A stretch of 64,000 nucleotides of DNA, from NCBI GenBank assembly GCA_030648835.1, contig JAUSGT010000002.1, forward strand, positions 12,108 through 76,107, written 5' to 3'. Under the pieces are notes generated by a model. The model saw nothing but the letters and a program-made list of their open reading frames with translations. It ran no database searches and was not told the DNA's origin. The position numbers and the translations under genes are program-made. This DNA is from Candidatus Moraniibacteriota bacterium (lineage in GTDB: Bacteria; Patescibacteriota; Minisyncoccia; Moranbacterales; UBA1568). Positions 3,802 through 60,191 of this stretch are shown one piece after another (the first letter of the stretch is position 1; the number at the start of each line of letters is the position of its first letter).

Positions 3802-3811
3802 ACACTCTTTC

Positions 3812-4540
3812 TTACACTTTCGGCTTAAAAATAATCCGCTGTTGAAAAATCATAAACAGTGTCGAGAAGAACCAATACAACGCCAGGGCAGCCGGGAAAG
3901 TAGCTCCAATAAAAAGCGTCAATCCGGGGCCGAGATAGAGCATTTGCTTATTCATTATAGCGGTAAAGTCCGGCTCTGTAGAGGCCCCTCCCTTCGGTTT
4001 TGGTATATTATTTTGGCTCTGAAAAAGCATTTTCGTCTGATAATACTGGGCGGCGGCGGAAAGGATGGCAAGTATGTAGTTTGGCTTCGTCAGATCCATA
4101 ATCCGCAAAAAGAAGTGATTTATTGCTCCTGGGTCAGGAATAAAAGCGTATAAATCGCTTGGATTAACCACAAATCCGGCCTCCGAGATGTTGATAATCA
4201 CCCGGTAGATGGCAATAAGAAAAAAAAGCTGAATAATAAGCGGCAAACAACCGGAAAATGGGTTGGTTTTGTTCACCTTGTAAAATTCCATGATGGCTTT
4301 TGTCTGCTGCTCCTTGTTGTTCTTATACTTCTCTTGCAACTCCTTGATTTTCGGCTGCAGCTCCTGCATTTTCTTTTGCGACTCAATCTGCTTTTTGGAA
4401 AGGGGTACCAGAAGGAACTTCAAAACAAGCGTCGTGAGAATAACTGCTATGCCAAAGTCATGCCCGGGGATAACATTATAAAAAAATATCAGGGCATTGT
4501 AGAGCGGCTGGTAGATAAAAATATCAAAAATATGGAGCAT
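3812..4540 (-). CDS. yidC: Membrane protein insertase YidC (short form)
   Basis: 242 aa. Hydrophobic core motifs (LTTLVLKFLLVPLSKKQIESQKKMQELQPKIKELQEKY, then NPFSGCLPLIIQLFFLIAIY) match the YidC/Oxa1 60 kDa_IMP domain. It is directly downstream of rnpA. Confidence 0.85.
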   Translation of the reverse strand: MLHIFDIFIYQPLYNALIFFYNVIPGHDFGIAVILTTLVLKFLLVPLSKKQIESQKKMQELQPKIKELQEKYKNNKEQQTKAIMEFYKVNKTNPFSGCLPLIIQLFFLIAIYRVIINISEAGFVVNPSDLYAFIPDPGAINHFFLRIMDLTKPNYILAILSAAAQYYQTKMLFQSQNNIPKPKGGASTEPDFTAIMNKQMLYLGPGLTLFIGATFPAALALYWFFSTLFMIFQQRIIFKPKV

Positions 4541-4549
4541 AAGACTGAA

Positions 4550-4888
4550 TTATTTTGCTTTTTTTAAACTTTGGAAAAGGTTCCCCGTTATCTGCCGCGC
4601 TCCCTCAATTCCTAATTTTTTTGGCTTTCTTACGGTAAAAAACACGATATCCCCGCCTTTCGGCCACTCCTCCCTCAGTTGAAAAAATGCTTCGGAGAGG
4701 ACGCGACGCAGACGATTTCGGTCAACCGCCAGAGGGACGTGCTTCTTACTGAAAGAAAACCCCAACCGGATGCCCGGTTTATCCGGCAAATACCGGCAGC
4801 CGATCTCGCTAAAAAAAAGAGGCTTACCGAAGCGAAAGACTCTCTCAAAATCCTCTTTTTTTCGCAAACGAAAGCCTTTTTTTAACAT
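4550..4888 (-). CDS. rnpA: Ribonuclease P protein component
   Basis: 112 aa basic protein. The RLRKKEDFERVF...LGFSFSKKHVPLAVDRNRLRR motif is the RnpA signature. It sits in the rpmH-rnpA-yidC context. Confidence 0.85.
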   Translation of the reverse strand: MLKKGFRLRKKEDFERVFRFGKPLFFSEIGCRYLPDKPGIRLGFSFSKKHVPLAVDRNRLRRVLSEAFFQLREEWPKGGDIVFFTVRKPKKLGIEGARQITGNLFQSLKKAK

Positions 4889-4891
4889 ATT

Positions 4892-5032
4892 TTACGCGAC
4901 TGTCAGCTTCTTTCTCCCCTCTCTCCGACGACGAGCGACAACCTTCTTCCCCCCGACAGTGCTCATCCGCTTCAAAAATCCATGCCGTCGCGCGCGTTTA
5001 CGGGTTTTCGGCTGATAGGTTCTCTTTGGCAT
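4892..5032 (-). CDS. rpmH: 50S ribosomal protein L34
   Basis: Not in the ORF track because it is under 60 aa. The reverse-complement translates to [46 protein letters not shown] (46 aa), a near-canonical L34, ending 4 nt upstream of the rnpA start. Confidence 0.85.
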
Positions 5033-5099
5033 ACAATAAAATTACATCTTAGATGACCGAACGTTTTTTCAGTGTACCAGAAAACTGACGAAAGTCAAT

Positions 5100-5229
5100 C
5101 ACAGGGCTGTGTTTGCGGTTATGCACCGCTTATCCACTCTTCATGCACTTGCTCTCCCTCGCTCCATTTGTTTGCTCGTGATATAATACATTTCACTGTT
5201 TTCACGATCTCCACGATAAGCACTACTCT
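5100..5229. promoter_or_regulatory. DnaA-box cluster and dnaA promoter region upstream of dnaA
   Basis: TTATCCACT at about 5130-5138 and further degenerate boxes (TTATGCACC, GCTTATCGT). An extended -10 (TGaTATAAT, 5179-5187) lies about 40 nt before the dnaA ATG. Confidence 0.5.
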
Positions 5230-6645
5230 ATGACAAACGAGGATCTCTGGAAGGCTGTACTCGGCCAAATTGAGCTTTCTATTTCCAAAGCAAATTTTAT
5301 CACCTGGTTTAAAAATACACTTATCCTGAACAACCAGGACGGAGTGGTAACCATCGGTGTCCCAAACGGATTTGCGAAAGAGTGGTTGGAAAACAAATAC
5401 AATCTGTACATTTTGCGTGCCCTAAAAAGTTTTGACGAGAGCGTCAAGACTATCCACTGTGTTATCGCGCCAGAAAGAGTGAGTAGCATAACGCCAAACG
5501 TTGATTCCCTGAAAAATGTCGACGCCGTAAAGCCGCCCGAAAACACCGGTTTTGTACGAAAAAGGCTCATTGAAAAGCCGTTTTTTACCGCAACTGGGCC
5601 ATCAACAACCACTTTTCATGAAACCAACCTCAACAACCGCTATACGTTTGAAAACTTCATTGTGGCCGAAAATAATGAACTGGCGCGAGCGGCCTGCTAT
5701 GCCGTTTCACAAAACCTGGGGATGGCGTATAACCCACTTTTCATCTATGGTGGCGTGGGGCTTGGGAAAACCCACCTTCTCCAGTCAATCGGAAATGAAG
5801 TGGCAAAAAGCTCACCGGAAAAGAGAATCAAGTATATCAATTCGGAGCGTTTTACCACGGAACTCGTTGATTCCATCAAAAATCAGAAAATCGATAAGTT
5901 CAAAGAGTACTATCAGCAAATGGATCTCCTGATTATCGATGATATCCAGTTCCTCGCCGGGCGAGAAAAGACTCAGAATGAATTCTTCCATATTTTTAAC
6001 ACTCTCTACCAAATAAACAAACAGATTGTCATATCGAGCGACCGCCCACCCAAAGCTATCCCCACGCTGGAGGAACGTCTGCGCTCCCGCTTCGAAGGAG
6101 GGATGATAGCGGACATCAGCCGCCCGAACCTCGAGACGAGAATCGCCATTTTGGAATCCAAAATCGCGGAAAAGGGCTTCATTATCGACGCCCCGGCAAT
6201 CCGCTTCATTGCGGAACACATCACCCAAAATATCCGTGAGCTCGAGGGGGCGCTCAACCGCGTTATCGCCTTTTCCGAATTCCACAAGATCTCCCCAACG
6301 CTCGAAAACACGGAGAAAATCCTTTCCCAGCTCATCGAAAACAACAAAAAAACCATCCAGGTGGAGGATGTTTTCCGTACGGTTTCGGAATTTTATGGCG
6401 TTACAAAAGAAGCCCTGGTCAAAAAAGGACGGAAAAAAGAAGTTTCCCATCCTCGTCAAGTAATGATGTTTTTCCTCCGCACGGAACTTCAAACGCCCTT
6501 CTCCGCTATCGGAGAAATTCTTGGCGGGAGAGACCATACAACCGCACTCCACGCCTTTGAAAAAATAAATACCAATAAAGAAACCCACGCGCGCCTCAAA
6601 GAGGAGCTCAGCACGCTCAAAGATCGACTCTACTACCCAGCCTAG
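5230..6645 (+). CDS. dnaA: Chromosomal replication initiator protein DnaA
   Basis: 471 aa. Walker A GVGLGKTHLLQSIGNE, an AAA+ domain, a C-terminal DnaA-box-binding domain, and the N-terminus MTNEDLWKAVLGQIELSISKANFITWF. Confidence 0.95.
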   Translation: MTNEDLWKAVLGQIELSISKANFITWFKNTLILNNQDGVVTIGVPNGFAKEWLENKYNLYILRALKSFDESVKTIHCVIAPERVSSITPNVDSLKNVDAVKPPENTGFVRKRLIEKPFFTATGPSTTTFHETNLNNRYTFENFIVAENNELARAACYAVSQNLGMAYNPLFIYGGVGLGKTHLLQSIGNEVAKSSPEKRIKYINSERFTTELVDSIKNQKIDKFKEYYQQMDLLIIDDIQFLAGREKTQNEFFHIFNTLYQINKQIVISSDRPPKAIPTLEERLRSRFEGGMIADISRPNLETRIAILESKIAEKGFIIDAPAIRFIAEHITQNIRELEGALNRVIAFSEFHKISPTLENTEKILSQLIENNKKTIQVEDVFRTVSEFYGVTKEALVKKGRKKEVSHPRQVMMFFLRTELQTPFSAIGEILGGRDHTTALHAFEKINTNKETHARLKEELSTLKDRLYYPA

Positions 6646-6909
6646 AGAAATTCAGTGGATAAGGCTGTATAACCCCCATAACCCCCGTGTATTTTTTTTG
6701 TATAGGTTCCGCGCTTCGGTGAATAAAAACAACCTCTATAAAAATTTCCCAGAGTTATCCTTACTATTACAAATATTCACCCGCATTCCATCCTAATTAT
6801 CACTCCAAAAAACCCATAGATAAAACAAATAGTCCACTTATCCAGATAGTCACAACACTAATCATAATAATAAATTTATATATATAATTAAGAGAATATT
6901 ATAACTTCT
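6646..6909. promoter_or_regulatory. Candidate oriC (dnaA-dnaN intergenic region: DnaA boxes plus AT-rich unwinding element)
   Basis: GTGGATAAG (6655-6663, reverse orientation), TTATCCTTA (6755-6763), TTATCCAGA (6838-6846). Then an extremely AT-rich tract ATAATAATAAATTTATATATATAATTAAGAGAATATTATAA at 6860-6905, immediately before dnaN. Confidence 0.6.
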
Positions 6910-8061
6910 ATGAAACTTATCTGCACCCAAGAAAATCTAAGTCGAGCAATTTCTTGTCTGGAAAGAATCGCCGGGAGACAATCCGCTTTACCGATCCTTA
7001 GTAATTTTCTTTTGGAAACAGAGAAAGGAAGATTGAAAATATCGGCAACAAATTTGGAAATAGGAGGAATTATTTATATTGGGGCAAAAATAGAAAAAGA
7101 AGGGAAGGTTGCCATTCCAGGGAAAGTGCTCTGTAACTTTATTTATAACCTACCCGCGGGGGACGTATTACAGCTGGAGAGTGATAAAGAAGGCTTAAAA
7201 ATAGAGAGCGCGGCATACCAAGTGAAGATAAAAGGAGTGGACGGAAAAGATTTTCCCATCATCCCCCAGTATAAAGAAGAATACCCCTATTCTTTCCCGG
7301 CCCAAAAATTAAAAACCGCCCTTTCCCGGCTTCTGTTTTGTGTGAGTTTGAACAACGCTCGCTTGGAGTTGACGGGCGTTCATGTATTTTTTTATAAAGA
7401 CCAGATCCATTTGGCGGCAACGGACAGTTTTCGTCTTGCCGAGGAAATTATCCTTGTTGCCGGAGGAGGAGAAAGCCAAAGCGACTTTCTTTCCAAAAAT
7501 CAAAGCCTCATTATTCCCGGGAATACCCTTCAGGAGATTATCCGCGTGATTACTCCCGAAAGCCAGGAGGTGAAAATCGCTCTCAAGGAGAACCAGATAT
7601 TTTTTGAGATAGACGGAGTACAAATAATCTCCCGCAGTATCAACGGGAAATACCCGGATTATAAACAAATTATCCCGAAGGAATTTGTACTTTCTGTGAT
7701 ATTGGAGAAAGAGGTTTTCCAAAGGGCGGTAAAAATCGCGAGCGGGTTCTCTTCTTACAACTCCGGTGAGATAGCCCTCACGTTCCAATCAGGAGAAAAA
7801 CAATGCGTAGTTTCTTCACAGTCGGCTGAGACCGGTGAGAACAAAACCACCTTGCCGATAGAAGTGCAAAAGGCCGGACCCACGTTGACGATCATTTTCA
7901 ACCCCCGGTATGTTTTAGAGGGAATAAATGCCCTGCCGGGAGAAAAGATCCTTTTTCTTGCCAACAACAGCTCTAGCCCGGCGGCGCTTCGGGCGTACAC
8001 CGAAGAGAGTGGTACTCTCGCGGGGGACTACCTCTATATTATGATGCCGATACGGAAGTAA
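6910..8061 (+). CDS. dnaN: DNA polymerase III beta subunit (sliding clamp)
   Basis: 383 aa with a three-domain beta-clamp pattern. N-terminus MKLICTQENLSRAISCLERIAGRQSALPILSNFLLE. Located immediately after dnaA. Confidence 0.9.
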   Translation: MKLICTQENLSRAISCLERIAGRQSALPILSNFLLETEKGRLKISATNLEIGGIIYIGAKIEKEGKVAIPGKVLCNFIYNLPAGDVLQLESDKEGLKIESAAYQVKIKGVDGKDFPIIPQYKEEYPYSFPAQKLKTALSRLLFCVSLNNARLELTGVHVFFYKDQIHLAATDSFRLAEEIILVAGGGESQSDFLSKNQSLIIPGNTLQEIIRVITPESQEVKIALKENQIFFEIDGVQIISRSINGKYPDYKQIIPKEFVLSVILEKEVFQRAVKIASGFSSYNSGEIALTFQSGEKQCVVSSQSAETGENKTTLPIEVQKAGPTLTIIFNPRYVLEGINALPGEKILFLANNSSSPAALRAYTEESGTLAGDYLYIMMPIRK

Positions 8062-11302: not shown

Positions 11303-12262
11303 TTATGAGAGCGTGGCAAGTTTGTTTTTAAACACACGCAGAAGAGATCGATGCATTTTCATCATAGAAGGTTTTTCTTCGGGGGTGAAATAAAGTCCGG
11401 GCATGGAGTTAAGTTCGACTACCCAGGGCCTTTTGCTCTTGTCAAACATGAGGTCGATAGTGTAGATTTTTGGGTGGAATGATTTAAAAATATTTTGAGC
11501 CCATTTCACTATAGGGAGGACTGATTTGGGGACGCTATTTTTTGGTATAACGGTCAGGCTACCGCCTTGGGCGAAATTAGCAAGATAGCTGCCCGTCTTT
11601 GGCTCACGGATATAAGTGTAGACAATCGTATCATTGACAAAGACCAGCCGCAGGTCGTGCATGCCACTTTTTATGCCCGGAACACCGCAAGAGGAATCTA
11701 TGAACTCCTGGAGAATATGCTCTCCTCGGAATGATATCTTTGAGGTATTTTTTTTAGGGAAAACCTGAACGCCTTTGCCGCCACTTTCACAAATTGGTTT
11801 GAGGACAGCTAGGGGGGTGCCTACTTTTTTCGCAGCCACCTGAAGTTCTGCATGACTCCTGACGATATAATTTTCTTTGCTCCATTGCGGGAAAAGAAGT
11901 CCGGTTACGAATTTATCATCAATGATGCGCGTGAAGATGCGATCATTGATGAATGCATAGCGCTCGGCCATCAATTCTTTTTTGTAATAGACTTCCTCAC
12001 GGCCTTTGGTCTTGTCATAGATAAGGTCCGGTTTTATATCAGAAACACGTTCCCACTTACTGGTCTTGCCGCTGAAAATCCAAGCATGCTTAAAAATATG
12101 TTTTTCGTAGTCATACCATTCATACGAGGCGCGGTACATCTGGATTCCATTTTTCTTACACAGACTATAGAGTAGCTCGTAAGAATATTGGTAATCTTTA
12201 TTATCGAACGGCCGGCTTTTCTCCCAGCGGCTTCTGCCAAAAAGAATCATTACCTTTTTCAT
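11303..12262 (-). CDS. ATP-grasp domain ligase (unassigned subfamily)
   Basis: VLKPICESGGKGVQVF is the phosphate-binding loop. DLRLVFVND and PWVVELNSMPG give the E-x-N Mg-binding motif. Together these are typical of ATP-grasp amidoligases. Confidence 0.65.
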   Translation of the reverse strand: MKKVMILFGRSRWEKSRPFDNKDYQYSYELLYSLCKKNGIQMYRASYEWYDYEKHIFKHAWIFSGKTSKWERVSDIKPDLIYDKTKGREEVYYKKELMAERYAFINDRIFTRIIDDKFVTGLLFPQWSKENYIVRSHAELQVAAKKVGTPLAVLKPICESGGKGVQVFPKKNTSKISFRGEHILQEFIDSSCGVPGIKSGMHDLRLVFVNDTIVYTYIREPKTGSYLANFAQGGSLTVIPKNSVPKSVLPIVKWAQNIFKSFHPKIYTIDLMFDKSKRPWVVELNSMPGLYFTPEEKPSMMKMHRSLLRVFKNKLATLS

Positions 12263-12273
12263 ACCGGTTGAAG

Positions 12274-13800
12274 TTATTTATTGACATCGATAAGGAACTT
12301 TCGCAGATTTTTTCGCCCGACAATAACCGGATACTCGAGGTGTGCGCGATCTATGACAGAGACTCTCGCGGGGATAGAGAGGGTATCCATAACAAGCTCA
12401 ATGTGAACCACGGGACGGTAGGAGGCCCCGTGAGAAGATTGTACGGAGGTGGTGTCGGCAAGATCGGGGACGGAAGAAAAAAGCAGTTCGCGTTCGGCTT
12501 TTGTGAGTTCTTGCATAATATCACGACCAGCTACCTTTTCATCAAAAATGCGAAGTGTTTCTGCAAATCCCAGCTCTTTCGCAAGTTCGGTATCGATAGC
12601 CGTCGAATCGGCACCAGTGTCGATTTTGGCTTCCACCTCGATTTCTTTGCCATCTTTGCCGATGAGCTTCACTTTCTCGATGGTGCCGATGACGCGTTTG
12701 CCGGAGAGTTCCTCGATTTCTTCCTCGATTTCACCGCCGAAAAGATTCATTCCAACCCGCATCCCGCGTTCGGTGGTCTTGACTTGGAGACCTTTGACAC
12801 GATTGAGCCGGCTTTTCAGCCCGGAAAAATTTGCCAGTTGGATGGAGAGCCCCGGACGGGCATTGAGTTCGAGAATGACCGGGCCGCGCTCGCGGTCGAT
12901 GGCGATATCGGCGCCGAGAAAACCGAGATGCGAAATGGCTTGGGCGTCGATGGCCATACGGAGAACATCTTTCCAGTAAGGAATCTTGATGCCAGAAAGG
13001 ATGAGCCGCGTGTTGGGCACGTATTCGATGATATGACCTTTGCCGAGAATGGCCGTGGTGGTCGTCCCGGTGGCAAGGTCGATACCGACGCCGATAGCCC
13101 CTTGTTGCAGATTGGCCTTGCCATCAGAGTGTTTGGTCGGGAGACGGAGCATGGCCATTATCGGAATGCGGTTGTAAATGATGACGCGGATATCCGGGAT
13201 GCCTTTGTAGGCGTAAGGTTTGAAAAGTTTCAAGAGTTTTAGACGCTCTTCAAAAAAAGCGATATCAGGGATATTGGAAAGAGAAAATGATCCGTCGAGA
13301 ATGTTGCGGATGTGGTTTTTCAGATCATCAACGGTGACTATGGAGCCGTCAGCCTTGACCCAGTTTTCACTGAAAGGATTTGTCTCATTTTCTCCTATGG
13401 GTTTTTCTGGTGTATTTGTTGAGTCGCTTGGTGTCGTTTTCGTCGCCGGAAGAGGCGTGGCGCTTGGGCTCGAATGAGCATTCAGGGGTGAGGACTGAGG
13501 GGCGGTAGATTTTTTCCGTCCATAGACAACGAGAATTCCTTCGCCACCGAAACCGCGGTTTGGTTTCAAAGCGAAACTATTGGGGAGCGTGGAGAAGTCG
13601 AACTTTTCCAATTCCTCGTGGTTTTCGATCTTCGCGATAAGCGCCGGGACACCGAGATTATTTTTTTTCAGGGTACGCTTGCAGAGGAGTTTGCTATCGG
13701 CAATCTCCATCCCACGTTTGCGGTTGGAAGGGCGGATGTAATCGAGGTTTCTCGCATTCATACCGAGAAGCCCCTGGCTTTTTTTGAAAAAATCGAACAT
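12274..13800 (-). CDS. RimK-like ATP-grasp ligase fused to a C-terminal retropepsin-like (Zn_protease/COG4067-type) domain
   Basis: N-terminal MNARNLDYIRPSNRKRGMEIADSKLL...ALKPNRGFGGEGILVV...ILELNARPGLS has RimK-related ATP-grasp motifs. A low-complexity S/T/P linker follows. The C-terminal 150 aa carry EAKIDTGADSTAID, the D-T-G-A aspartyl-protease motif. The start is reassigned to the Met at 13800, so the gene does not overlap the upstream gene. Confidence 0.65.
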   Translation of the reverse strand: MFDFFKKSQGLLGMNARNLDYIRPSNRKRGMEIADSKLLCKRTLKKNNLGVPALIAKIENHEELEKFDFSTLPNSFALKPNRGFGGEGILVVYGRKKSTAPQSSPLNAHSSPSATPLPATKTTPSDSTNTPEKPIGENETNPFSENWVKADGSIVTVDDLKNHIRNILDGSFSLSNIPDIAFFEERLKLLKLFKPYAYKGIPDIRVIIYNRIPIMAMLRLPTKHSDGKANLQQGAIGVGIDLATGTTTTAILGKGHIIEYVPNTRLILSGIKIPYWKDVLRMAIDAQAISHLGFLGADIAIDRERGPVILELNARPGLSIQLANFSGLKSRLNRVKGLQVKTTERGMRVGMNLFGGEIEEEIEELSGKRVIGTIEKVKLIGKDGKEIEVEAKIDTGADSTAIDTELAKELGFAETLRIFDEKVAGRDIMQELTKAERELLFSSVPDLADTTSVQSSHGASYRPVVHIELVMDTLSIPARVSVIDRAHLEYPVIVGRKNLRKFLIDVNK

Positions 13801-13867
13801 ACATTGGAATTTGGAATCTAGAATCTCGTATTTAGCTGAATACCAAGTACAAAATATCAAATACCAA

Positions 13868-14524
13868 TTATAAATAGCGAGCGATTTTGCGAAAACGGAA
13901 ATATTCCGTGACGCGCAGCCCCGTCCATTTCCCGAGGGAGAAATTGATGAGGAAAGTGAAGAGAATAATCCAGGGGAAGCGGAGAATGAGCGTGGTAAGG
14001 GCGTTCCAGCTGATGAGATAATAGCCAATAACGGAGATGAGAAGTGTTTCTGCCGCCAGAATGAAAGCGATGTGGCTGCCCTTCTCAATTTGCGTTGCGA
14101 CGAATTTTTCCGCCAGCGTAATCATGATGAGCAAGGGGAAAATACTCACCGCGGCCAGACCGGTACGCTGGTACATGCCACCGATGACGAGAATGATGAG
14201 AATAGCGAGAGAGATGATGGAGAGGGTGATAGCGACGCGCGGCAGATAGAGCAGGCGGAACCTCTTGAGGGCGAAGCGGACGATCATACCGACAACAATG
14301 ACGCCGACAAAGATAGCGATGCCGTATTTCACGCCATTCGGATCAAATGCCAAGAGGGCGAAGGTGATGATTGACGGCGTGTAGATGCCGAAGGCCTTGA
14401 TACCGATGACTTGGCGGAAGAAGGCTACCAGTGTCGCGATGACGGGAAGCATGAGGAGGAGGAGCACCGTCTGTATCGGAACGCCTTGCTCGACAAAAAA
14501 CGTGATGAGGGGATGATATTCCAT
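13868..14524 (-). CDS. Multi-pass integral membrane protein (6-7 TM), first gene of the ATP-grasp operon
   Basis: 218 aa, highly hydrophobic with about 6-7 predicted helices. It is 67 nt upstream of the RimK-like fusion on the same strand. Confidence 0.5.
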   Translation of the reverse strand: MEYHPLITFFVEQGVPIQTVLLLLMLPVIATLVAFFRQVIGIKAFGIYTPSIITFALLAFDPNGVKYGIAIFVGVIVVGMIVRFALKRFRLLYLPRVAITLSIISLAILIILVIGGMYQRTGLAAVSIFPLLIMITLAEKFVATQIEKGSHIAFILAAETLLISVIGYYLISWNALTTLILRFPWIILFTFLINFSLGKWTGLRVTEYFRFRKIARYL

Positions 14525-14640: not shown

Positions 14641-15138
14641 TTAGTCTTTCGAATTTCGAATTTTATCCATACGGCGGCGGCTGGCATGGCAGAGCGCCAG
14701 CGCCAGCGCATCCGCTACATCGTCCGGCCTGGGGATGGCGGAGAGTTTGAGGAGCGCCTTCACCATCAATTGTACCTGGGATTTGTCTGCTCGCCCATAA
14801 TTCGTCAAGGCCTGTTTCACTTCGAGCGGAGTGTAACCGGAAACTTTAACACATAAATTTTCTAAAGTCAAGAGGATAGCGCCCCGCGCTTGAGCGACGG
14901 AAATGACCGTTTTCTGGTTCTTGAAGAAGAAAAGTTCTTCCACGGCGGCTTCCTCTGGCCGGTATTTTTTGATGATGCCAGAGAGATCTCTGGAAATTTC
15001 CAAGAGCCGTTCGGAAAGCGGCAAATCTTTGGATGTACTGATGTGCCCGAAAGCCATGACAGCATTCTTGCTTCCCTCTACTTCTATGACGCCCCAGCCG
15101 ACCGTTGCGGTGCCGGGATCGATTCCTAAAATACGCAT
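14641..15138 (-). CDS. ruvC: Holliday junction resolvase RuvC
   Basis: MRILGIDPGTATVGWGVIE contains the catalytic Asp. The fold is RNase H-like and the size is 165 aa. Confidence 0.9.
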   Translation of the reverse strand: MRILGIDPGTATVGWGVIEVEGSKNAVMAFGHISTSKDLPLSERLLEISRDLSGIIKKYRPEEAAVEELFFFKNQKTVISVAQARGAILLTLENLCVKVSGYTPLEVKQALTNYGRADKSQVQLMVKALLKLSAIPRPDDVADALALALCHASRRRMDKIRNSKD

Positions 15139-16873: not shown

Positions 16874-17626
16874 CTATTCAAGATTGTCCCACACCCGCTG
16901 GACGTCGGGATGATCGTTTATCTGCTCGAAGAAAGCATCGTACTGCTCGCGGGCTTTGGCGTCGAGGGCGACGGTCTGGATGGGACGATAGGAAAGCCCG
17001 GCAGATTTGACAGCGTAACCTTTTTCTTCCAGGACATCTTTCACTTTCTTCAGATTTTCGAAAGGGACGTAGAGGGCCAGGATATTTTCTTCGATATCTT
17101 CCGTATCTTCTGCCCCAGCATCGATAGCATCGAGTTCTGCGGTATCGCGGTCTTTTCCTGAATGATCGATGATGATTTCTCCGACTTGCTTGAAAAGGAA
17201 AGCTACCGAACCGATGGCGCCTATTTTCCCATTGGCTTTGGTGAAGAGGGATTTGATTTCGCTCACGGTGCGGTTGCGATTGTCGGTCGTGGTCTGGATG
17301 AGCATGGCGACATTGTCCGGCCCACCCGCCTTCGCAAGGCTACGGACGGGCAAGTACCCTTCGTAGAGAATGTCCTCGATAGTGGCACCATCCTTCAGTT
17401 CCCCGGTGCCGCGCTTGATGGCGCGATCGATATTGTCCTTGGGCATGTTGACGGTTCGCGCCTGGTCGATGGCGAGCCGGAGAGCGAAGTTCGTATCGGG
17501 ATTGCCCCCGCCGTGTTGTGCAGCCACGATAATATTGCGGCCGTATTTGGTGAATACGGCAGCGCGTTTGGCGTCATTAACGTCTTTTTGTCGATGAGTA
17601 GTAGCCCAATGAGAGTGTCCTGACAT
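16874..17626 (-). CDS. yebC: YebC/PmpR family DNA-binding regulator
   Basis: MSGHSHWATTHRQKDVNDAKRAAVFTKYGRNIIVAAQHGG is a near-consensus YebC N-terminus. 250 aa. Confidence 0.9.
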   Translation of the reverse strand: MSGHSHWATTHRQKDVNDAKRAAVFTKYGRNIIVAAQHGGGNPDTNFALRLAIDQARTVNMPKDNIDRAIKRGTGELKDGATIEDILYEGYLPVRSLAKAGGPDNVAMLIQTTTDNRNRTVSEIKSLFTKANGKIGAIGSVAFLFKQVGEIIIDHSGKDRDTAELDAIDAGAEDTEDIEENILALYVPFENLKKVKDVLEEKGYAVKSAGLSYRPIQTVALDAKAREQYDAFFEQINDHPDVQRVWDNLE

Positions 17627-19009: not shown

Positions 19010-19759
19010 TTACTTGCCGAATAGTTTTGTTACCCAGCCAAAAAAGTTGAAGGACTCTTCATTGTTATTAAGTGTCTCTTGAACTTTATCTTGTTGCTGT
19101 TGTATGGTCATAATTTGTTTCTTTAGAGCTTCTTTGAGGTCGCTATCCGATGTCTCATTCAAGAGACTGTCCAGTGTTTTGAGCTTACTTGTATTATTTG
19201 TTAATGTGTTTTTTAGAGTAGTTGTATCTGCATCGTTGGTACCCATCAAAAAGTTTCTTACTTTACTGTTGTTGATGTTATCAATAAGTACTTCTTGAGC
19301 GGCAACATCGGTTGCAATCTGCTTTTTAGCAGCTTTTATGTAGCCTCTCTCTTCAGTCGTTTTTTCATTTTCAGTTTTTATTTCGACATACGCGCTGTCT
19401 TTTGGGGGATCTTTCTCGGCTGTGTTTCTGATAGCGGGAGCTGTAGTTTTCGTAGCCGGAGCAGTCTTTGGCGCAGTCTCTGTGGTTGGCTTCTCTGCAG
19501 CTATTTTACCAGCCTCTTTGGCCTTTTTACAAAGTTTTTTTACCTCATCGCTCTGTGCAACTTTTCCAGGTTCACACGCATTCAAACATTTATTGATGTC
19601 ATGCTTCGGCCAACCTGGGGTACAGTATTTTTTTAGAGCCCGGTATCTCTCGTATTGCTTCACATAAGAACCTCCTATAGGAGCGGCGACTGAGGCATAA
19701 GACAAGCTGTAGTAAGAAAAAGCCCCAAGTAAAGCAAGAGAAAATGCCATTATTTTCAT
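19010..19759 (-). CDS. Secreted low-complexity/coiled-coil protein, hypothetical
   Basis: Signal peptide MKIMAFSLALLGAFSYYSLSYASVAA. K/T/A-rich central region. A C-terminal predicted coiled coil rich in N/T/L/Q. Confidence 0.5.
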   Translation of the reverse strand: MKIMAFSLALLGAFSYYSLSYASVAAPIGGSYVKQYERYRALKKYCTPGWPKHDINKCLNACEPGKVAQSDEVKKLCKKAKEAGKIAAEKPTTETAPKTAPATKTTAPAIRNTAEKDPPKDSAYVEIKTENEKTTEERGYIKAAKKQIATDVAAQEVLIDNINNSKVRNFLMGTNDADTTTLKNTLTNNTSKLKTLDSLLNETSDSDLKEALKKQIMTIQQQQDKVQETLNNNEESFNFFGWVTKLFGK

Positions 19760-19849: not shown

Positions 19850-20866
19850 TTACAGTAATTTATCTTGATGGTCAGCCGGCATATGGATGTCGAGATGTTT
19901 GTAGCCTTCGGGAGTGACGACGCGACCGCGCGGAGTGCGCGCAAGAAATCCCAGTTGGATGAGATACGGTTCGTAGACGTCCTCGATGGTCTGAATCTCT
20001 TCTCCGGTTACGGCGGCGATGGCCTGGATGCCGGCTGGGCCACCTTTGAATTTATGAATAACCGTGGAGAGTATATGACGGTCAGTCGGCTCGAGACCGA
20101 GATGATCGATTTCGTAGAGCTCGAGGGCTTCTTTGGCGATTTCCCCGGTAATGGTGGGCCAGTTTTTCGTTTGGGCATAGTCACGCACGCGTTTCAAGAT
20201 GCGGTTGGCGACACGCGGTGTTTGCCGGCTGGATGCCGCAATTTTTTTGGCGCCTTTTTCGTCGAGACCGATATTCAGAATACCGGAAGAACGCTTTACG
20301 ATTCGCTCGATTTCTTCCGGCGTGTAAAATTCGAGGCGGTGGGTGGATCCGAAACGGTTACGGAGAGGATTGGAGAGCGAGCCGAGACGGGTAGTGGCGC
20401 CGATCAGGGTGAAGCGGGGGAGGTCGAGTTGAATAGTGCGGGCGGCCGGACCTTTGCCGATGATGATGTCGAGCTTGTAATCTTCCATGGCTGGGTAGAG
20501 GACTTCCTCAATCATTTTATTCAGGCGGTGGATTTCGTCGATGAACAAGACGTCGCCATCATCGAGATTGGTCAAGATGGAACCGAGATCGCCGACTTTT
20601 TCGATGGCCGGACCGGAAGTGATCTTGATACTGACGCCCATTTCTTTGGCGATGATGTGGGCGAGCGTCGTTTTCCCCAGGCCTGCCGGGCCGTAGAGGA
20701 GGATGTGATCAATAGACTCCTCGCGTTTTTTTGCCGCTTGAATAAAAATATCCAGATTGCGTTTGATTTTTTCTTGACCGACATACTCCGAAAAACGCTG
20801 CGGGCGGAGCGTATTATCGAAACTTTTTTCATCAATAACAGTTGGGTCGGAGGCAATTACCATCAT
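19850..20866 (-). CDS. ruvB: Holliday junction branch migration helicase RuvB
   Basis: Walker [19 protein letters not shown], an AAA+ domain, and the RuvB C-terminal winged helix. 338 aa. Confidence 0.95.
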
Positions 20867-21354: not shown

Positions 21355-21388
21355 AAAAAAGAGACCCTTCGTGGGTCTTTTTTGTTTG
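21355..21388. terminator. Bidirectional intrinsic terminator
   Basis: AAAAAA-GAGACCC-ttcgt-GGGTCT-TTTTTGTTT. An A-run lies upstream and a T-run downstream, so it can terminate the minus-strand pilB-fusion transcript and any plus-strand transcript from the 20929 promoter. Confidence 0.7.
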
Positions 21389-21395
21389 GGATGTT

Positions 21396-24300
21396 TTACA
21401 AATCAGTGACGCGCTTCACTTCGTCGAGCGTGGTTAACCCTTCAAGGACACAGAGGATGCCGTCTTGGAGGAGGGTGATCATTCCAAGCGCGACCGCTTT
21501 CTCCTCGATTTCACTGACGAGCGCGCCATGAGCGATGAGCTCGGAGAGTTCTTTGCCGATGAGGAGCGTTTCGGCGATGACCATCTGCCCCGTGAAACCG
21601 GTACCACTACAGGTCGTACAGCCTTTGCCATGAGAGAGTCGCATTTTTTTGGTAAGCGCATCTTTGTCTGGTAATGATGCTAAGACCTTTTTAATAATTT
21701 CCTTTTCGGCTTCAGTTGGAGGGAGAGATTCTTTGCACTTGGCACAGATTTTTCGGACCAAACGCTGAGCCATGAAAAGATTGGCGGTGTTGGCGAGGTC
21801 GTCGTTCGTCACTCCCATCGCGGTCAGGCGGGAGACGACACCCGCAGCCGAATTGGTATGGAGGGTGGAGAGGACGAGGTGCCCGGTACTGGCGGCCTGG
21901 ACGGCAATTTGCGCGGTTTTTTCGTCACGGATTTCACCGATCATCAGAATATCGGGATTCTGGCGCATAAGCGAACGGAGCGCGGTAGCGAACGTATAGC
22001 CCTCGCTCTCTTTGGTTTGGGTTTGGAGGATGCCTTGGATCTGGTATTCGATCGGATCTTCAACCGTGATTATTTTTACTTCGGGCTTATTCAGTTTGGC
22101 GAGAATACTGTAGAGGGTGGAAGTTTTTCCGGAGCCGGTCGGGCCGGTGTTCAAGATTATCCCGTGTGGTTTGCCGATAGCCGCGTAAATATTTTCCAGA
22201 TTTTGTTTGCGGATGTGGAGCGTGTCGAGGTCGAGTTTGACGACGGACTGATTGAGAAGGCGCATGACAATTGTTTCACCGAAACCGCCGAGGATGATGG
22301 AAAGACGGATATCAACGGTATCAGGCTTTTCCTCCCCGGCCTTTTCGATGGTAAGAGAAAAACGACCATCAATGGTACCGGAACGTTCACCCGATTTGAG
22401 CCCGGCCGCCAGTTTGATTTCCGCGATGAGGGTCGGGTATTCGGTAATGGGAATGCGCGCGGCCGTTTGGAGAATGCCATCGATGCGATAGCGTACGTCG
22501 ACCATGTCTCCTTGAGGTTCGATATGGATATCTCCGGCGCGCAAGAGAAGCGCCCCGGCAAAAATAGCAGGCAGGCGTAATTGGGAGTCGATCCCGGCGA
22601 TATAGCCGGCAAATTTTTTGAGTGAAGTGGTTTCTTTTTTTGTTTTTGTGAAAAGGATTTCGGTAATGTGGGTGGAGCGGGAAAGTTCGCTCGGCATCAA
22701 CTCGGCATAGATATTTTGGAGAGATTCTGTCTGATCGGCGACGCGCCAGACTTCATCGAGCGTCGTGATGCCTTCGAGCGCTTTGAGAATTCCATCTTGG
22801 GTCATCGTGATCATCCCGTTTTCCAGCGCGGCGCGGAGAATTTCTTGCTCGTTCCCCATATTGTTGACGATCTTTATGATTTCTTCCGTCATGGTGAGCA
22901 CTTCAAATATGCCGATGCGGCCATGATAACCGGTGAAATTGCATTTTGCGCACCCGACCGCCTTGAAGAGAGAATCCACTTTTTTGGGGAGCGAAATTTT
23001 GGCTTTGGGAGAAATGATGGTGATGAGTTTCAGGATAGAATCAATGGTTTCCCGAGCCGGCGCGTAGGAAGCTTTACAGTCTGGGCAGAGGATGCGCACC
23101 AAGCGCTGTCCGATGAGAGCGTTCAGCGAGGCGGTGATGAGATCCGGCTTGACGCCGAGCTCCATAAAGCGCGGGATGGCGGCAGCGGCGCTGTTGGTGT
23201 GGAGGGTGGAAAATACGAGGTGTCCGGTAAGCGCGGCATTGACGGTGATGTCGGCGGTTTCCTCGTCGCGAATTTCCCCAACAAGAATCATATCGGGATC
23301 CTGGCGGACGATAGCGCGGAGCGCGGTGGCGAAGGTATAATCCTTGTTTTTGGAGATTTCCGTCTGCACGATGCCGGGCAGGGTGTATTCGATCGGGTCT
23401 TCGACAGTGATGACTTTTGTATCCGGCTGGTTGACGTGGTTCAAGAGTGTGTAGAGTGTCGTGGTTTTTCCGGAGCCGGTTGGACCGGTATTCAAGATGA
23501 GACCGTTCGGTTTGGAAATTTGTTTCAAGACTTCTTCATAAGCCAGCCCACGCAGTCCAAGTTTTTCGACATCGACGATGACATCGTCACCGGAAAGGAG
23601 GCGCATATTGATGTTTTCGCCATATTTTCCCGGGATGCTCGAGACGCGGACATCGATGCGCTTCTGGTCGAGATCGACGAAGAAGTGCCCATCTTGAGCT
23701 TCTTTGCGGATATTGAGGCGCATCTTGGCGATCATTTTGATACGTGAGAGGAGGAGGTGGTAGAGCTCTTGGGGGAGATCGCCGACTTCTTGGAGCACAC
23801 CGTCGATGCGGTAGCGCAGGCGGATGGCAGATTCTTCCGGCTCGAGATGGATGTCGCTGGCTCGGAGTTTTCTGGCGCCGGCCAAAATGATTTCCATCGA
23901 ACGCGAGGTGTTGAGCTTCTGACCTTCCTTGAGTGAGATAAGCTCCCCAAAATCTTTTTCGAATTTTTCCAAGTCGCTATCGCCGAGAGAGACACGCACG
24001 AGATCGAGAGCATCGAGAAAGGTGCGCTTGGAGTAATATTCCCAGGCGTGTTTGATGGACTGTTTCGAAATGAGGTACAGCTCTATCTGCCAGCCGTGTT
24101 TCTCGGCGAGAGCTTGGATGTATTCCAGCGCCCCCTTGTTCTTTGGATCGAGAAGAGCGAAACGGGTGAGCGTACTTTTTTTGCTGAAGAGGATGACGTT
24201 CCATTTTTTGGATTCAGCTTCCGGGAGGAGCATGATATCCTCGGCGTTTAAAGGGAAAGCGTGAAGATCGATGTATGAGAAGCCGCTTTTGGCGGCCAAG

Positions 24301-24410
24301 AGCGAGGCCTGTTCTTCCATCGAAATCTCGCGCATTTTTTTCAAAATCGCTTGTGTTTTTTCTTCTTTTTGAGAAGAGGGAGTTGTATTTTGGTGAACCA
24401 CCTTTACCAT
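21396..24410 (-). CDS. Tandem-duplicated type II/IV secretion ATPase (GspE_N + two complete PilB/GspE N2-ATPase cores in one polypeptide)
   Basis: First core: Walker A LILNTGPTGSGKTTTL, an Asp box, His box TLHTNSAA, and a tetra-Cys CPDC...CAKC. Second core: Walker A IILNTGPTGSGKTSTL, VLSTLHTNSAAG, and CAKC...CTTC. An N-terminal T2SSE_N-like domain precedes them. The start is moved to MVKVVHQ (24410). Confidence 0.85.
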   Translation of the reverse strand: MVKVVHQNTTPSSQKEEKTQAILKKMREISMEEQASLLAAKSGFSYIDLHAFPLNAEDIMLLPEAESKKWNVILFSKKSTLTRFALLDPKNKGALEYIQALAEKHGWQIELYLISKQSIKHAWEYYSKRTFLDALDLVRVSLGDSDLEKFEKDFGELISLKEGQKLNTSRSMEIILAGARKLRASDIHLEPEESAIRLRYRIDGVLQEVGDLPQELYHLLLSRIKMIAKMRLNIRKEAQDGHFFVDLDQKRIDVRVSSIPGKYGENINMRLLSGDDVIVDVEKLGLRGLAYEEVLKQISKPNGLILNTGPTGSGKTTTLYTLLNHVNQPDTKVITVEDPIEYTLPGIVQTEISKNKDYTFATALRAIVRQDPDMILVGEIRDEETADITVNAALTGHLVFSTLHTNSAAAAIPRFMELGVKPDLITASLNALIGQRLVRILCPDCKASYAPARETIDSILKLITIISPKAKISLPKKVDSLFKAVGCAKCNFTGYHGRIGIFEVLTMTEEIIKIVNNMGNEQEILRAALENGMITMTQDGILKALEGITTLDEVWRVADQTESLQNIYAELMPSELSRSTHITEILFTKTKKETTSLKKFAGYIAGIDSQLRLPAIFAGALLLRAGDIHIEPQGDMVDVRYRIDGILQTAARIPITEYPTLIAEIKLAAGLKSGERSGTIDGRFSLTIEKAGEEKPDTVDIRLSIILGGFGETIVMRLLNQSVVKLDLDTLHIRKQNLENIYAAIGKPHGIILNTGPTGSGKTSTLYSILAKLNKPEVKIITVEDPIEYQIQGILQTQTKESEGYTFATALRSLMRQNPDILMIGEIRDEKTAQIAVQAASTGHLVLSTLHTNSAAGVVSRLTAMGVTNDDLANTANLFMAQRLVRKICAKCKESLPPTEAEKEIIKKVLASLPDKDALTKKMRLSHGKGCTTCSGTGFTGQMVIAETLLIGKELSELIAHGALVSEIEEKAVALGMITLLQDGILCVLEGLTTLDEVKRVTDL

Positions 24411-24524
24411 ACCATTTGTTTTTTTGTTTGTGCCCCCATTGTACCTCAAAATGAGGTGCTTCGGCAAAAGAAAAACCCAGCTCAAGTAACTGGGTGAACA
24501 GAAACATTGAAAAGGAGGAACTCT

Positions 24525-25680
24525 CTATGCTTTCTCCGGAGGAGCGGAGATGTTTTGAAGGCGACCGAGGATCACGCGCTCCGCTTCATCGAGACTTCCG
24601 GCAGGGAGAGCAAAAGAAATCATATCGCCATGAATGGCGCCTTCTTTGAAACGCTCGGCAAAAAAAGCCAGGGCTTCACCGGAATGGGCCTTGACGATAC
24701 CGCGGACGAGACCATTGGTTTCCGGGTGGAGAATCATGAAGAGGTGAGCCGAGGAATAGTTGCTTTTGATTTTTTCCAAGACCTGTGGCAAGTCAATAAC
24801 TGTGGCGCGCGCCTGGACGAGGTCTTCGATCGTGACGAAAGCCCAGATGAGTTTCAGATTTTCGTTCCACTTGACCCCCGCCATCACGCGACCCCAGAGC
24901 TTGAGGAGGTGCAGGGGCTGATTTTTATAGAGCGCGCGGACTATTTTCTGCTGATCAGCGCCTTTATCCATCAAATGGGAGGCCAACTGAAGGGCTTTCG
25001 GGGTGGTATTCTTTTTTTGAAAGCTTTCCGTGGCGGAAATGATACCGGCGAGCAGACACTCGCAGAGCGCTTCCGTGAAGAGGCTCGGAGTGGCCTTCTC
25101 GAGGATCTCGGCGAGAATTTCCGCGTTTGAAGAGGCGGTGATGTCGACGAGATTTACTTGGCCAAAAAGTTCGTTCTCCGGATGATTGTCGATATTGACG
25201 ATGGGTATTTCATAGAAGATGTCCGGGTTGTCTTCGTAAATTTTCCCCAACGATTCTTTGTCAGTGGCGCCGATGACGATGGCGAGATCGAATTTGAATT
25301 TTGCAGGAATGAAAGAAAAATCCCTAGGGTCAATGGATCCGTTTTCCGGCGTGAGATAGACGCGTACTTCTTCCGCGGCGGTTTCTGTCCGTACGTTGAG
25401 GATTTTGTTGCGTGTGGTATTGAAAGAAAGGACGAAATCTCGAGCCCCAGCGATGGAGGCAAGAATATTTTCCGGCTGAACAAGAAAAGCCAACGCCTCT
25501 TTATCGGTGGTAATGTGCTCGCCGGCGAGTGTCACAGATTTACCGGTGTTTTTGAGAAAAAGAGCCAAAGCGTACGCGCTTGCCACAGCGTCTCGGCTGG
25601 GATAGGAGGGGAGGAGAATCAGCGGAGTGGCGGTTTTTTTCAAGAGGTCTTGAAATTGTTGGGCGGGGGTAAGGGACATA
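24525..25680 (-). CDS. DHH/DHHA1-family phosphoesterase (NrnA-like)
   Basis: Domain order and length match NrnA-type DHH proteins, with a C-terminal DHHA1-like GG motif region. The start is taken at MSLTPAQQ. The first ORF-track codon appears to be a non-ATG start. Confidence 0.6.
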
Positions 25681-25856
25681 CGGGCGCAAAGTATAAAGTG
25701 AAAAGTTTGAAAGTTGAAGTCGGAAACAATCTGATGCGATAACAGGCGGATAGTCAAAAATAGCAGAGAAGAGCCAAAGCGTCAACCCCGGCAAAAAAAC
25801 AAGTAGTGGAGGGAGCTCTCGTCAGAAAGAATATTTTGCGATAGGATAGGAGCGCT

Positions 25857-34952: not shown

Positions 34953-35225
34953 CTATTTCTTCGCAACTGCGTTCTTGACGAGGGCGTTCAAGCGAGATTT
35001 CTTGCGGGCGGCGGTGTTTTTCTTGATGATTTTTTTCTGAGTGGCCTTGTCGAGAGACTTTACGGCAGTTTTCAACCATTCTTGTGCCTCTTTCACATTA
35101 CCGGCTGTGACGGCCTCGCGGGTTTTCTTGATAGCGCTTTTGATGACACCGGTGACGACTTTGTTGCGCAGAGTGTTCTTGGCGGTGACGCGCATGTATT
35201 TTTTGGCGGCTTTTTTGATGGGCAT
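34953..35225 (-). CDS. rpsT: 30S ribosomal protein S20
   Basis: MPIKKAAKKYMRVTAKNTLRNKVVTGVIKSAIKK. 90 aa, basic. Canonical S20. Confidence 0.9.
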   Translation of the reverse strand: MPIKKAAKKYMRVTAKNTLRNKVVTGVIKSAIKKTREAVTAGNVKEAQEWLKTAVKSLDKATQKKIIKKNTAARKKSRLNALVKNAVAKK

Positions 35226-35373
35226 AGCAAATAAATTTCAAAGTATAAATTACAAATTTCAAAAGGGGAAACAAAAGACCAGAACCTATCCTTTCTATCA
35301 TACCGACGGGATTTTGGCAAGAGTGTGCCCTAAGTGCTATCCTATGAGAGAGATTCTTGATTCTTCATTACCT

Positions 35374-35946
35374 ATGATTGCTCAACTTGAAGGAAAAATT
35401 GCGGGAATGCGGGGGAATGCGGTCATTCTCCAGGTCGGAGGTATCGGGTACCTTGTGTTTGTTTCTTCCTACACTCTGGGGAAGGTGGCTTCGCAGGAGC
35501 AAGTGTTTCTCCATATCCATACGCATGTGCGCGAGGACCAGTTTTCTCTCTACGGCTTCCTCAATGAAGAAGAATTGACTATGTTTGAATTGCTCATTTC
35601 TATTTCCGGTATCGGACCGAAGATGGCGCTTTCAATTCTTTCCATTGCTGATGTCAATACCATTCGCACCGCTATCGTGAACAAAGACCCGAGTATTCTG
35701 ACGCGCGTCTCCGGTGTAGGCAAGAAGACGGCCGAACGGGTCATCGTGGAGTTGCAAAACAAAGTGGATGCGGTCGGCGTCGAAGATCAAGCAAGCGCAC
35801 TCCGTGGTCAGGATACTATCGAAGCGCTGACGTCCATGGGGTACTCGATTACCGAAGCGCGCGAGGCGCTCAAGCTGGTGCCGGCCGAAGTGACCGATGT
35901 GAGCAAGCGCATTCGCCAGGCGCTGAAGAATCTCGGAAAGAAGTGA
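35374..35946 (+). CDS. ruvA: Holliday junction DNA helicase RuvA
   Basis: MIAQLEGKIAG...VGGIGYLVF OB-fold domain. HhH motifs ISGIGPKMALSIL...VSGVGKKTAERV. The start is chosen at MIAQLEG; an alternative ATG lies at 35344. Confidence 0.85.
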   Translation: MIAQLEGKIAGMRGNAVILQVGGIGYLVFVSSYTLGKVASQEQVFLHIHTHVREDQFSLYGFLNEEELTMFELLISISGIGPKMALSILSIADVNTIRTAIVNKDPSILTRVSGVGKKTAERVIVELQNKVDAVGVEDQASALRGQDTIEALTSMGYSITEAREALKLVPAEVTDVSKRIRQALKNLGKK

Positions 35947-60190: not shown

Positions 60191-60191
60191 A

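Follow-up and report, generated by a model that had tools for sequence, protein, structure and literature searches.

Introduction

Coordination in the PilB/PilT/GspE motors is still argued from crystal and cryo-electron microscopy snapshots of homohexamers, with C2 versus C3 symmetry, the direction of rotation and the number of firing sites being the points at issue. In the six-unit rings, N2D(n) and CTD(n+1) form a rigid packing unit, and the pattern is C2 (CCOCCO) in all PilB structures and C3 (OCOCOC) in PilT, FlaI, archaeal GspE2 and DotB (PMC6858323). A PilB homologue can also be encoded away from pilC, as is the case for the orphan second extension motor TfpB of Acinetobacter baylyi (PMC8213720). 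For bacteria of the candidate phyla radiation (CPR), type IV pilus genes including the one for PilB are described as co-localizing, and PilQ-type secretins are reported to be lacking (PMC6744442). In Saccharibacteria, two cluster-encoded PilBs are in use (PMC11623550). Here, we analyze a gene for a tandem PilB/GspE-superfamily ATPase found at positions 21396..24410 (minus strand) of a 64,000-nucleotide stretch of DNA, called the window in the following, from a Candidatus Moraniibacteriota bacterium (contig JAUSGT010000002.1). Its product joins two complete motor modules in one chain and represents a natural covalent two-unit, rarely three-unit, motor of the PilT/VirB11 class, belonging to a previously unnamed orphan clade. 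In the literature searched, neither a tandem PilB/GspE nor any covalent tandem of the PilT/VirB11 class is described, and databases label such proteins simply as GspE/PulE or PilB.

Results

The Tandem Gene Encodes Two Complete Motor Modules

From the single, uninterrupted open reading frame (ORF) at 21396..24485 (minus strand), a protein of 1029 aa can be deduced when counting from a TTG codon, and this length had been assigned in a previous interpretation of the letters and translated ORFs (in the following, the sequence-only reading). However, the real product has 1004 aa and the true start is the ATG at 24410, since translation from this codon is 100% identical to the deposited NCBI protein P0001 (from a 635,596-bp contig), the inspected N-termini of homologues read MV[KQ]V, and the TTG at 24485 sits within a terminator-like hairpin 3' of the upstream gene. 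The TTG is spurious, and the complete gene consequently spans 21396..24410, corresponding to 1004 aa plus stop.

Scanning with Pfam results in two full T2SSE (PF00437) stretches with 733.5 bits in total (cut-off 24.9) and a single borderline MshEN or T2SSE_N-like N1 domain (PF05157, 23.5 bits at a cut-off of 23.1) at residues 43–127 (24030..24284, minus strand). According to profile envelopes and motif conservation, module A comprises residues 164–560 (22731..23921, minus strand) with N2D_A (about 168–282) and CTD_A, and module B comprises residues 605–1004 (21399..22598, minus strand) with N2D_B and CTD_B. Each module alone matches the PilB/GspE models at E-values of about 1e-117 to 1e-139. 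Both carry GPTGSGKT, VEDPIEY, GEIRD, TGHL..STLHT and two CxxC pairs. For module A, the key residues are the Arg fingers R255/R270, Walker A at 309–316, the Asp box E337, the catalytic E379, the His box H397/H404 and the cysteines C442/445/487/490, and for module B the Arg fingers R702/R717, Walker A at 756–763, the Asp box E784, the catalytic E826, the His box H844/H851 and the cysteines C889/892/931/934. The Arg fingers were located by mapping R271/R286 of Geobacter PilB, for which the roles of the catalytic residues have been described (McCallum 2017, PMC5424180), through the alignment with the PDB structures. The view of one polypeptide with two complete PilB/GspE cores, a GspE_N-like domain present once and a tetra-cysteine motif in each module, put forward in the sequence-only reading, is thus well founded.

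When aligned to each other, the two halves show 45% identity across 397 residues (E = 2e-113), with the local alignment beginning at residue 150 versus 587 and without inactivating substitutions in either. The duplication can also be traced at the DNA level, as had been claimed before, but the similarity of about 72% is confined to the ATPase core. Moreover, the two antisense shadow peptides previously taken as near-identical share only 60% identity over 65 aa; they stem from the opposite strand of the region coding for Walker B and the His box and are a by-product of module homology.

The modules are connected by a linker at residues 559–608 (22587..22736, minus strand), delimited by conservation, by secondary structure and predicted local distance difference test (pLDDT) values from AlphaFold and by the alignment of the halves. 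It starts with a conserved helix, in which Q560, L564, Y568, L571, M572 and L576 are each retained at 90% or more. A low-confidence stretch (570–578) in the AlphaFold model then leads to two helices with homology to those preceding N2D in module A. Searching the model with Foldseek, core chains of PilB and PilF match about one module at a target-normalized TM score of up to 0.92 and a root mean square deviation of 2.5 Å, and the fold of the tandem is PilT/VirB11-like, not that of AAA+ proteins or KaiC. As coverage of the model by any single PDB chain is at most 36%, a tandem of the PilT/VirB11 class has not been solved so far.

Conservation of the Tandem Architecture

Within its lineage, the tandem form is not rare. 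The best 120 matches from a search of 5.8 billion proteins are nearly all 1003–1022 aa long, cover the full query at 53–89% identity and stem, where named, from Moranbacteria, Moraniibacteriota, Patescibacteria or Minisyncoccota. HMMER over 1.84 billion cluster representatives yielded about 15 two-module clusters at the 50% level (978–1047 aa, identity down to 38%), some of them from the Parcubacteria group or Paceibacterota, and a second search seeded with one of these proteins added about 110 doubles from Parcubacteria. Taken together, 261 distinct two-module proteins were recovered from NCBI, JGI, ENA and Logan, among which a length of about 1004–1009 aa and the two-module architecture recur. 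One of them (P0024) is present on a contig of an NCBI metagenome-assembled genome (MAG) as well as on a Logan contig, with neighbors in identical order, and another one (P0088) occurs on 98 contigs.

Conservation of the catalytic residues is nearly complete. The Walker A Lys is retained in 260 of the 261 A modules and in all 261 B modules, while the Asp-box Glu, the catalytic Glu, both Arg fingers and both His-box His are found in 261/261 sequences in both modules. Each of the four Cys is likewise present in every A module and in at least 260/261 B modules. Both modules are apparently catalytically competent, as judged from these sequences, and an inactive half, the possibility of which the sequence-only reading had raised, was rejected on the motif counts (at least 260/261 for the catalytic residues in both modules). 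In the Moranbacteria family, the ATPase cores are equally conserved, with mean pairwise identities of 0.730 for A and 0.725 for B, and N1 is the least conserved folded part (0.43). Besides, module-specific differences are evident. Module A has an invariant Q239, a position that is variable in B. The first Arg of the RxRxR motif (R197) is present in 183/261 A modules but absent from B, and the canonical QDGR arginine is replaced by His in 129/261 A modules and kept in 260/261 B modules. In addition, the C-terminal zinc-motif region is faster-evolving in module B (0.49 versus 0.62 in A). These patterns are indicative of a putative sub-functionalization without loss of catalysis.

A RuvB-Linked Orphan Clade

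In the window, the tandem gene is located between a gene for a DHH-family protein (24525..25757, minus strand) upstream and ruvB (19850..20866, minus strand; assigned by ORF and conserved synteny) downstream. The DHH assignment is based on a Pfam match of 25.1 bits, below the cut-off of 28.1, and similarity to NrnA is weak (NCBIfam 42 versus 350). Close by are tsaE, polA, a bPH_2 gene, yebC (16874–17626) and ruvC (14641–15138), and dnaA/dnaN lie about 15 kb away from the ATPase gene. PolA, TsaE, DHH, ATPase, RuvB, YebC and RuvC form a conserved block. Of seven further loci with two or three modules, six (L001, L004–L008) share the order TsaE, (DHH,) ATPase, RuvB, ..., YebC, RuvC, down to 40–44% protein identity. 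At the three-module locus L003, TsaE and DHH are directly upstream of the ATPase, and RuvB and bPH_2 are about 5 kb upstream instead of downstream. A scan of GTDB species representatives gave at least 80 loci, and the block order is seen altogether in L001, L004–L009, L013–L015, L019, L021 and others. A DHH orthologue precedes the ATPase gene in L001, L003–L005, L007–L010, L031, L040, L049 and L066, and RuvB follows at least 13 single-module loci.

Among the matches listed, the same slot in other Patescibacteria is occupied by a single-module PilB-like gene of 433–630 aa, the lineages being Paceibacterota, Doudnabacteria, Giovannonibacteria, Minisyncoccia, Wildermuthbacteria, Nealsonbacteria, Staskawiczbacteria and several MAGs labeled Saccharibacteria. 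The singles in L031, L038, L040, L048, L049 and L066 (Wildermuth-, Nealson- and Staskawiczbacteria and others) have 433–450 aa and are without N1. Other Patescibacteria PilBs listed from the same scan adjoin pilC and, in four of six cases, also a gene for a PilT-sized ATPase. A neighbor-joining (NJ) tree with 200 replicates places the singles from this slot and the A and B modules of all doubles in one clade, apart from these cluster-type PilBs, at a bootstrap value of 0.89. Sharing of the slot with the singles and the split from the cluster PilBs both argue for the window gene being the tandem form of an orphan, RuvB-linked ATPase. On the evidence of tree and gene order, the window gene is to be assigned to a Patescibacteria-specific, RuvB-linked orphan clade of PilB-like proteins and not to the pilus-cluster PilBs.

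The suggestion to look in related genomes for a split arrangement did not lead to a split pair, since relatives carry a single-module gene at the same locus. Hence, the alternative state is single, not split. Two proteins came into question as halves of a split pair, the A-like P0134 with 601 aa and the B-like P0149 with 553 aa, but their contigs of 2.4 kb and 3.5 kb, respectively, are too short to interpret.

Linkage with ruvB may reflect frozen gene order in a small genome rather than an operon. A promoter-like site (TTGCCG, 18-nt spacer, TACAAT; 9/12 in a consensus scan, a pattern match only) is located at 24438..24467 (minus strand), about 28 nt 5' of the ATG. Two terminator-like hairpins with T-runs, likewise pattern matches, are present at 24475..24495 (minus strand), 3' of the upstream DHH gene and containing the TTG codon mentioned above, and at 21362..21378 (minus strand), 18 nt past the stop codon of the ATPase gene. 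Flanked by these hairpins and preceded by a promoter-like site, the tandem gene might be transcribed as a single gene and not together with DHH or RuvB. In the window, including the 530-bp gap before ruvB, an Rfam scan gave only two tRNAs and no other structured RNA, and PADLOC returned matches at the P-loop level only and no link to a defense system.

Duplication History and a Three-Module Relative

Many lineages have one module at this locus, and Moranbacteria and several Parcubacteria lineages have two. In module trees, most first modules cluster together, as do most second modules, across Moranbacteria and Parcubacteria, which would fit one old duplication. With the halves being only 45% identical, the duplication must be old and is not explained by collapse during assembly. 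In P0124 and P0126 (bootstrap 100) and in P0136 from outside the CPR (bootstrap 92), the protein's own two modules are each other's nearest relatives. These cases could be independent later duplications or the result of gene conversion. P0136 (1047 aa, NCBI/Logan, non-CPR-like composition) additionally shows a first-module Walker A of GPTGSGTT, with Lys changed to Thr and apparently degenerate, and an N-terminal extension of about 220 aa that by eye resembles part of a GspF/PilC-type protein.

Three complete ATPase modules are encoded by P0012 (1460 aa; L003:10001–14383 on the 77-kb JGI 3300022698 contig Ga0248662_100121), in a neighborhood that is partly similar to the one in the window. Its middle module is chimeric, combining a B-type N2D (70% identity with module 3) and an A-type CTD (62% identity with module 1). 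Such a pairing would be predicted if N2D_B and CTD_A work together as a packing unit.

Pilus-Related Genes

Among all ORFs of 150 aa or more in the window, pilC, pilM, pilT, pilD or pilin genes were not found, and gsp genes are likewise absent from the window. Scanning the window for the motif of class III signal-peptide pilins was also without a hit, with the strict pattern used possibly missing divergent pilins. This corroborates the earlier statement that pilC, pilM and pilin genes are not adjacent. The genes found in the next 9 kb to the left of the window are solely those for glycosyltransferases, Wzy, ribonucleotide reductase and superoxide dismutase. PilC proteins retrieved by a profile search belong mainly to Microgenomates (Woesebacteria, Pacebacteria), and none of them could be matched to a contig bearing a double. 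A pilin-like gene (type IV, N_methyl) is located at L006:15952–16443 in a Parcubacteria locus, about 3 kb downstream of the tandem gene and on the opposite strand. It is the sole pilus-related gene seen near any tandem gene.

Other Features of the Window

The region at 3310–8061 encodes an R3H/Jag-like protein, yidC, dnaA (5230–6645) and dnaN (6910–8061), with rnpA close by in the matching Logan contig L088, and the minimum of the cumulative GC skew is at about 6–8 kb. Probably, replication of the chromosome starts in this region, which lies about 15 kb away from the tandem gene. At 11303–14524, a 7TM_transglut membrane protein and two or three ATP-grasp proteins (RimK/ATPgrasp_ST), one of them fused to a Zn_protease domain, are encoded, and this cluster is also present in L001 and L004–L007, always downstream of ruvC. 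Between ruvB and the bPH_2 gene, a 249-aa protein (19010–19759, minus strand) with a signal-peptide-like N-terminus and a low-complexity stretch rich in Thr, Ala, Lys and Pro is encoded, for which searches in Pfam and PADLOC gave no match. Relatives have a small ORF or LTD/PKD surface proteins in this slot. About 14 kb away from ruvB, the ruvA ORF (35041–35946) encodes 301 aa when counted from GTG. As RuvA_N begins only at residue 112 and the L001 orthologue has 204 aa, its true start is probably about 100 codons downstream. A tRNA-Asn gene (58547–58621) abuts the gene of a large serine recombinase (58592–60349, minus strand) with Resolvase, Recombinase and zinc-ribbon domains. In the stretch from 58547 to 64000, GC content drops beyond the recombinase from about 0.48 to 0.44 and 0.395, and long ORFs are few, so that this part looks like a mobile element integrated at a tRNA gene.

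Discussion

A Proposed Ring of Alternating Modules

As an explanation for the tandem ATPase, we lean, with some reservation, toward a selectively maintained motor of the orphan clade that forms a trimeric ABABAB ring and works for a filament machine in trans. In such a scenario, an in-frame internal duplication would have placed a second copy of the whole motor unit (pre-N2D helices, N2D and the zinc-motif CTD) after the first one, with the single N1 remaining at the N-terminus. As the simplest assembly for a two-module chain, three chains might then join into one planar ring of six modules, A-B-A-B-A-B, with C3 symmetry and only three N1 domains instead of six. Both kinds of module would bind and hydrolyze ATP, and the packing units would be heterotypic, N2D_B:CTD_A and N2D_A:CTD_B. 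In trans, like TfpB of Acinetobacter, the motor would probably power a machine for a type IV filament or of the competence type, the genes of which lie elsewhere in the genome. As to oligomeric state, heterotypic packing and cellular role, we can only infer these from the data at hand. A planar ring is favored by the fact that module numbers of two and three both divide six. Heterotypic planar packing is favored by the triple, whose chimeric middle module adds one N2D_B/CTD_A pair, so that only interface types known from the double would occur, and would be mismatched in a homotypic stacked ring.

A ring from three A-B chains would fit the OCOCOC pattern, and a dimer of the three-module relative would be C2. 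The sequence-only reading had assumed that a fused dimer could hard-wire the C2 asymmetry of these motors. This is geometrically wrong, because positions related by C2 (i and i+3) always hold one A and one B module in an ABABAB ring, which has C3 pseudo-symmetry. By the same token, such a ring cannot realize the CCOCCO pattern of the PilB structures symmetrically, which counts against our explanation, as do several other results. With 115 family sequences, AlphaFold modeled the full chain at a mean pLDDT of 79.6, but the predicted template modeling score (pTM) is only 0.54, and a construct comprising CTD_A, linker and N2D_B reached a pTM of 0.67, so that a rigid intramolecular packing unit is not established. 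Mutual information between N2D and CTD columns, corrected by average product correction, gave a similar, phylogeny-dominated signal in all four blocks and did not separate heterotypic from homotypic pairing. NJ is a simple distance method, deep nodes are weak, and the support for the B-module clade is 0.375. Neither module singly reaches the NCBIfam equivalog cut-offs. Module A with N1 and module B score 464.5 and 391.2 bits against PilB (TIGR02538, cut-off 675.65), and the values per module are 462.3 and 411.6 bits against GspE (TIGR02533, cut-off 630.25), 372.4 and 327.9 bits against TfpB (NF053534, cut-off 850) and 239.5 and 229.3 bits against ComGA (NF041000, cut-off 300). That the full protein passes for PilB (844 bits) is only due to the two modules adding up. 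Finally, apart from the pilin-like gene in L006, pilC, pilM, pilD and pilin genes were not found in the 10-kb flanks of seven related loci, and we infer the link to a filament machine from homology alone, as no other pilus gene is seen near tandem loci.

Alternative Explanations

Most natural tandem ATPases, such as KaiC, p97, NSF and ClpB, are stacked double rings, which is a further point against a planar arrangement and leads to the alternative of six chains forming an A ring and a coaxial B ring in the style of KaiC or type II AAA+ proteins, with homotypic packing (N2D_A:CTD_A and N2D_B:CTD_B). The linker of about 50 residues with its disordered stretch at 570–578 would be long enough for this, and neither AlphaFold nor covariation lends support to a fixed side-by-side arrangement. 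However, covalently linked ring stacking is not known in the PilT/VirB11 superfamily, a PDB chain covering both modules is not available, the membrane-platform face of one ring would be buried, and the middle module of the triple, with its B-type N2D and A-type CTD, would not match in a homotypic ring. Stacking appears rather unlikely to us but is a rival to be taken seriously. A division of labor reminiscent of F1-ATPase alpha/beta, in which one module is a regulatory pseudo-enzyme holding nucleotide or the ring while the other one works, could be read from the module-specific differences at Q239, R197 and the QDGR arginine and from the faster evolution of the C-terminal zinc-motif region in module B. 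Yet the residues needed for catalysis are kept in both modules in at least 260/261 sequences, the two cores are equally conserved, and degeneration is detectable when it occurs, as the loss of the Walker A Lys is plainly visible in the non-CPR double P0136, all of which makes a pseudo-enzyme very improbable. An assembly artefact, be it two paralogous pilB genes joined or one gene expanded, could draw only on the exact window protein being recorded from a single contig and can practically be dismissed. The halves, with 45% protein identity and core-only DNA identity of about 72%, are too diverged for collapse or expansion, there is one N1 rather than two, and the linker is conserved. Moreover, the architecture is found in 261 distinct sequences from four data sources, many from independent assemblies, with individual members recurring on as many as 98 contigs and one being shared by NCBI and Logan assemblies, which disposes of the misassembly considered in the sequence-only reading.

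With respect to cellular role, the orphan clade, singles and tandems alike, might not comprise pilus motors at all but serve a process tied to DHH, RuvB, YebC and RuvC, that is, DNA uptake, handling or recombination. In favor of this, the slot between TsaE/DHH and RuvB is held across Patescibacteria down to about 40% protein identity, and the gene never adjoins pilC or pilT, whereas the genes of the separate Patescibacteria PilB clade do so and CPR type IV pilus genes including pilB are reported to be co-localized (PMC6744442). On the other hand, terminator-like hairpins and the promoter-like site argue against co-transcription with DHH or RuvB. The block also contains unrelated housekeeping genes (PolA, TsaE, YebC) at about 15 kb from dnaA/dnaN, so that linkage may be frozen order, and sequence and fold are nearest to PilB/GspE, including the four-cysteine motif and N1. 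Resemblance to PINA, a branch-migration ATPase, does not go beyond the P-loop (25–28 bits versus a cut-off of 800). Overall, a non-pilus role seems unlikely but deserves serious consideration. Similarly doubtful is a combined variant, in which the RuvB-linked orphan class would, in Moranbacteria and Parcubacteria, work as a covalent A-B tandem in a C3 trimer-of-dimers with an OCOCOC division of labor, unlike the C2 cycle of all PilBs characterized so far, and maybe in DNA uptake or recombination and not in classical pilus extension.

Implications

In a homohexamer, positions are not separately mutable. In contrast, a tandem with two diverged, active-looking units lends itself to position-specific mutagenesis and to measurements of stoichiometry, with the rare three-unit relative as a second case. 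Engineered covalent ClpX rings did likewise for AAA+ unfoldases. If the tandem has repeatedly arisen, in at least three further lineages and in one triple, a fixed subunit order in the ring would be selectively favored. Furthermore, genes annotated as "PilB" in the ultra-small CPR bacteria would split into two kinds, pilus-cluster and RuvB-linked orphan, which affects the scoring of pilus and competence capacity.

Comparison With Known Systems

Compared to PilB/GspE proteins of known structure, i.e., PilB from Geobacter metallireducens (5TSG/5TSH/6OLJ), Thermus PilF (5IT5/5OIU) and Vibrio EpsE (1P9R/4KSR), each module of the tandem has the same N2D plus CTD fold, with Walker A, Asp box, atypical Walker B, His box, Arg fingers and the four-cysteine zinc motif, and N1 is likewise N-terminal. 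Unlike these proteins, the tandem has two motor modules per chain and one N1 per two modules, is not encoded with pilC, pilM or pilT and falls into a clade apart from the cluster-type PilBs of Patescibacteria. With TfpB, proposed to serve a pilus machine encoded elsewhere (PMC8213720), it has the location away from pilC in common, and in both cases there are two distinct ATPase units, which cooperate in extension in the TfpB system. However, TfpB and PilB are separate proteins for which a shared ring is not established, whereas the units of the tandem are covalently joined. As an orphan PilB homologue, the tandem would resemble TfpB in function and not by family, given the scores against NF053534 mentioned above.

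Pairs of diverged PilB-like ATPase genes also occur in Omnitrophota, Opitutales and Planctomycetes, some of them arranged head to tail and 4 bp apart or overlapping. They resemble the tandem in this respect, but are separate genes in different phyla with an N1 for each protein. Among the matches listed, such pairs, with genes of about 570–630 aa and an N-terminal domain in each, were seen at L053:3251–6895, L073:2932–6366 and L074:2836–6274 (Omnitrophota, Opitutales) and further ones at L017, L033, L034, L037, L046, L052, L057, L061, L071 and L078 (Planctomycetes and relatives). Their arrangement suggests obligate partners, which could be unfused heteromeric counterparts of the tandem.

Duplicated ATPase units with diverged copies in one machine are also known from KaiC (CI-CII), from D1-D2 of p97, NSF and ClpB and from alpha3beta3 of F1/V1. 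In contrast to the PilT/VirB11-class tandem, the folds of KaiC, p97 and F1 are RecA/DnaB-like or AAA+, and their copies are arranged in stacked rings (KaiC, p97) or as separate alternating chains (F1).

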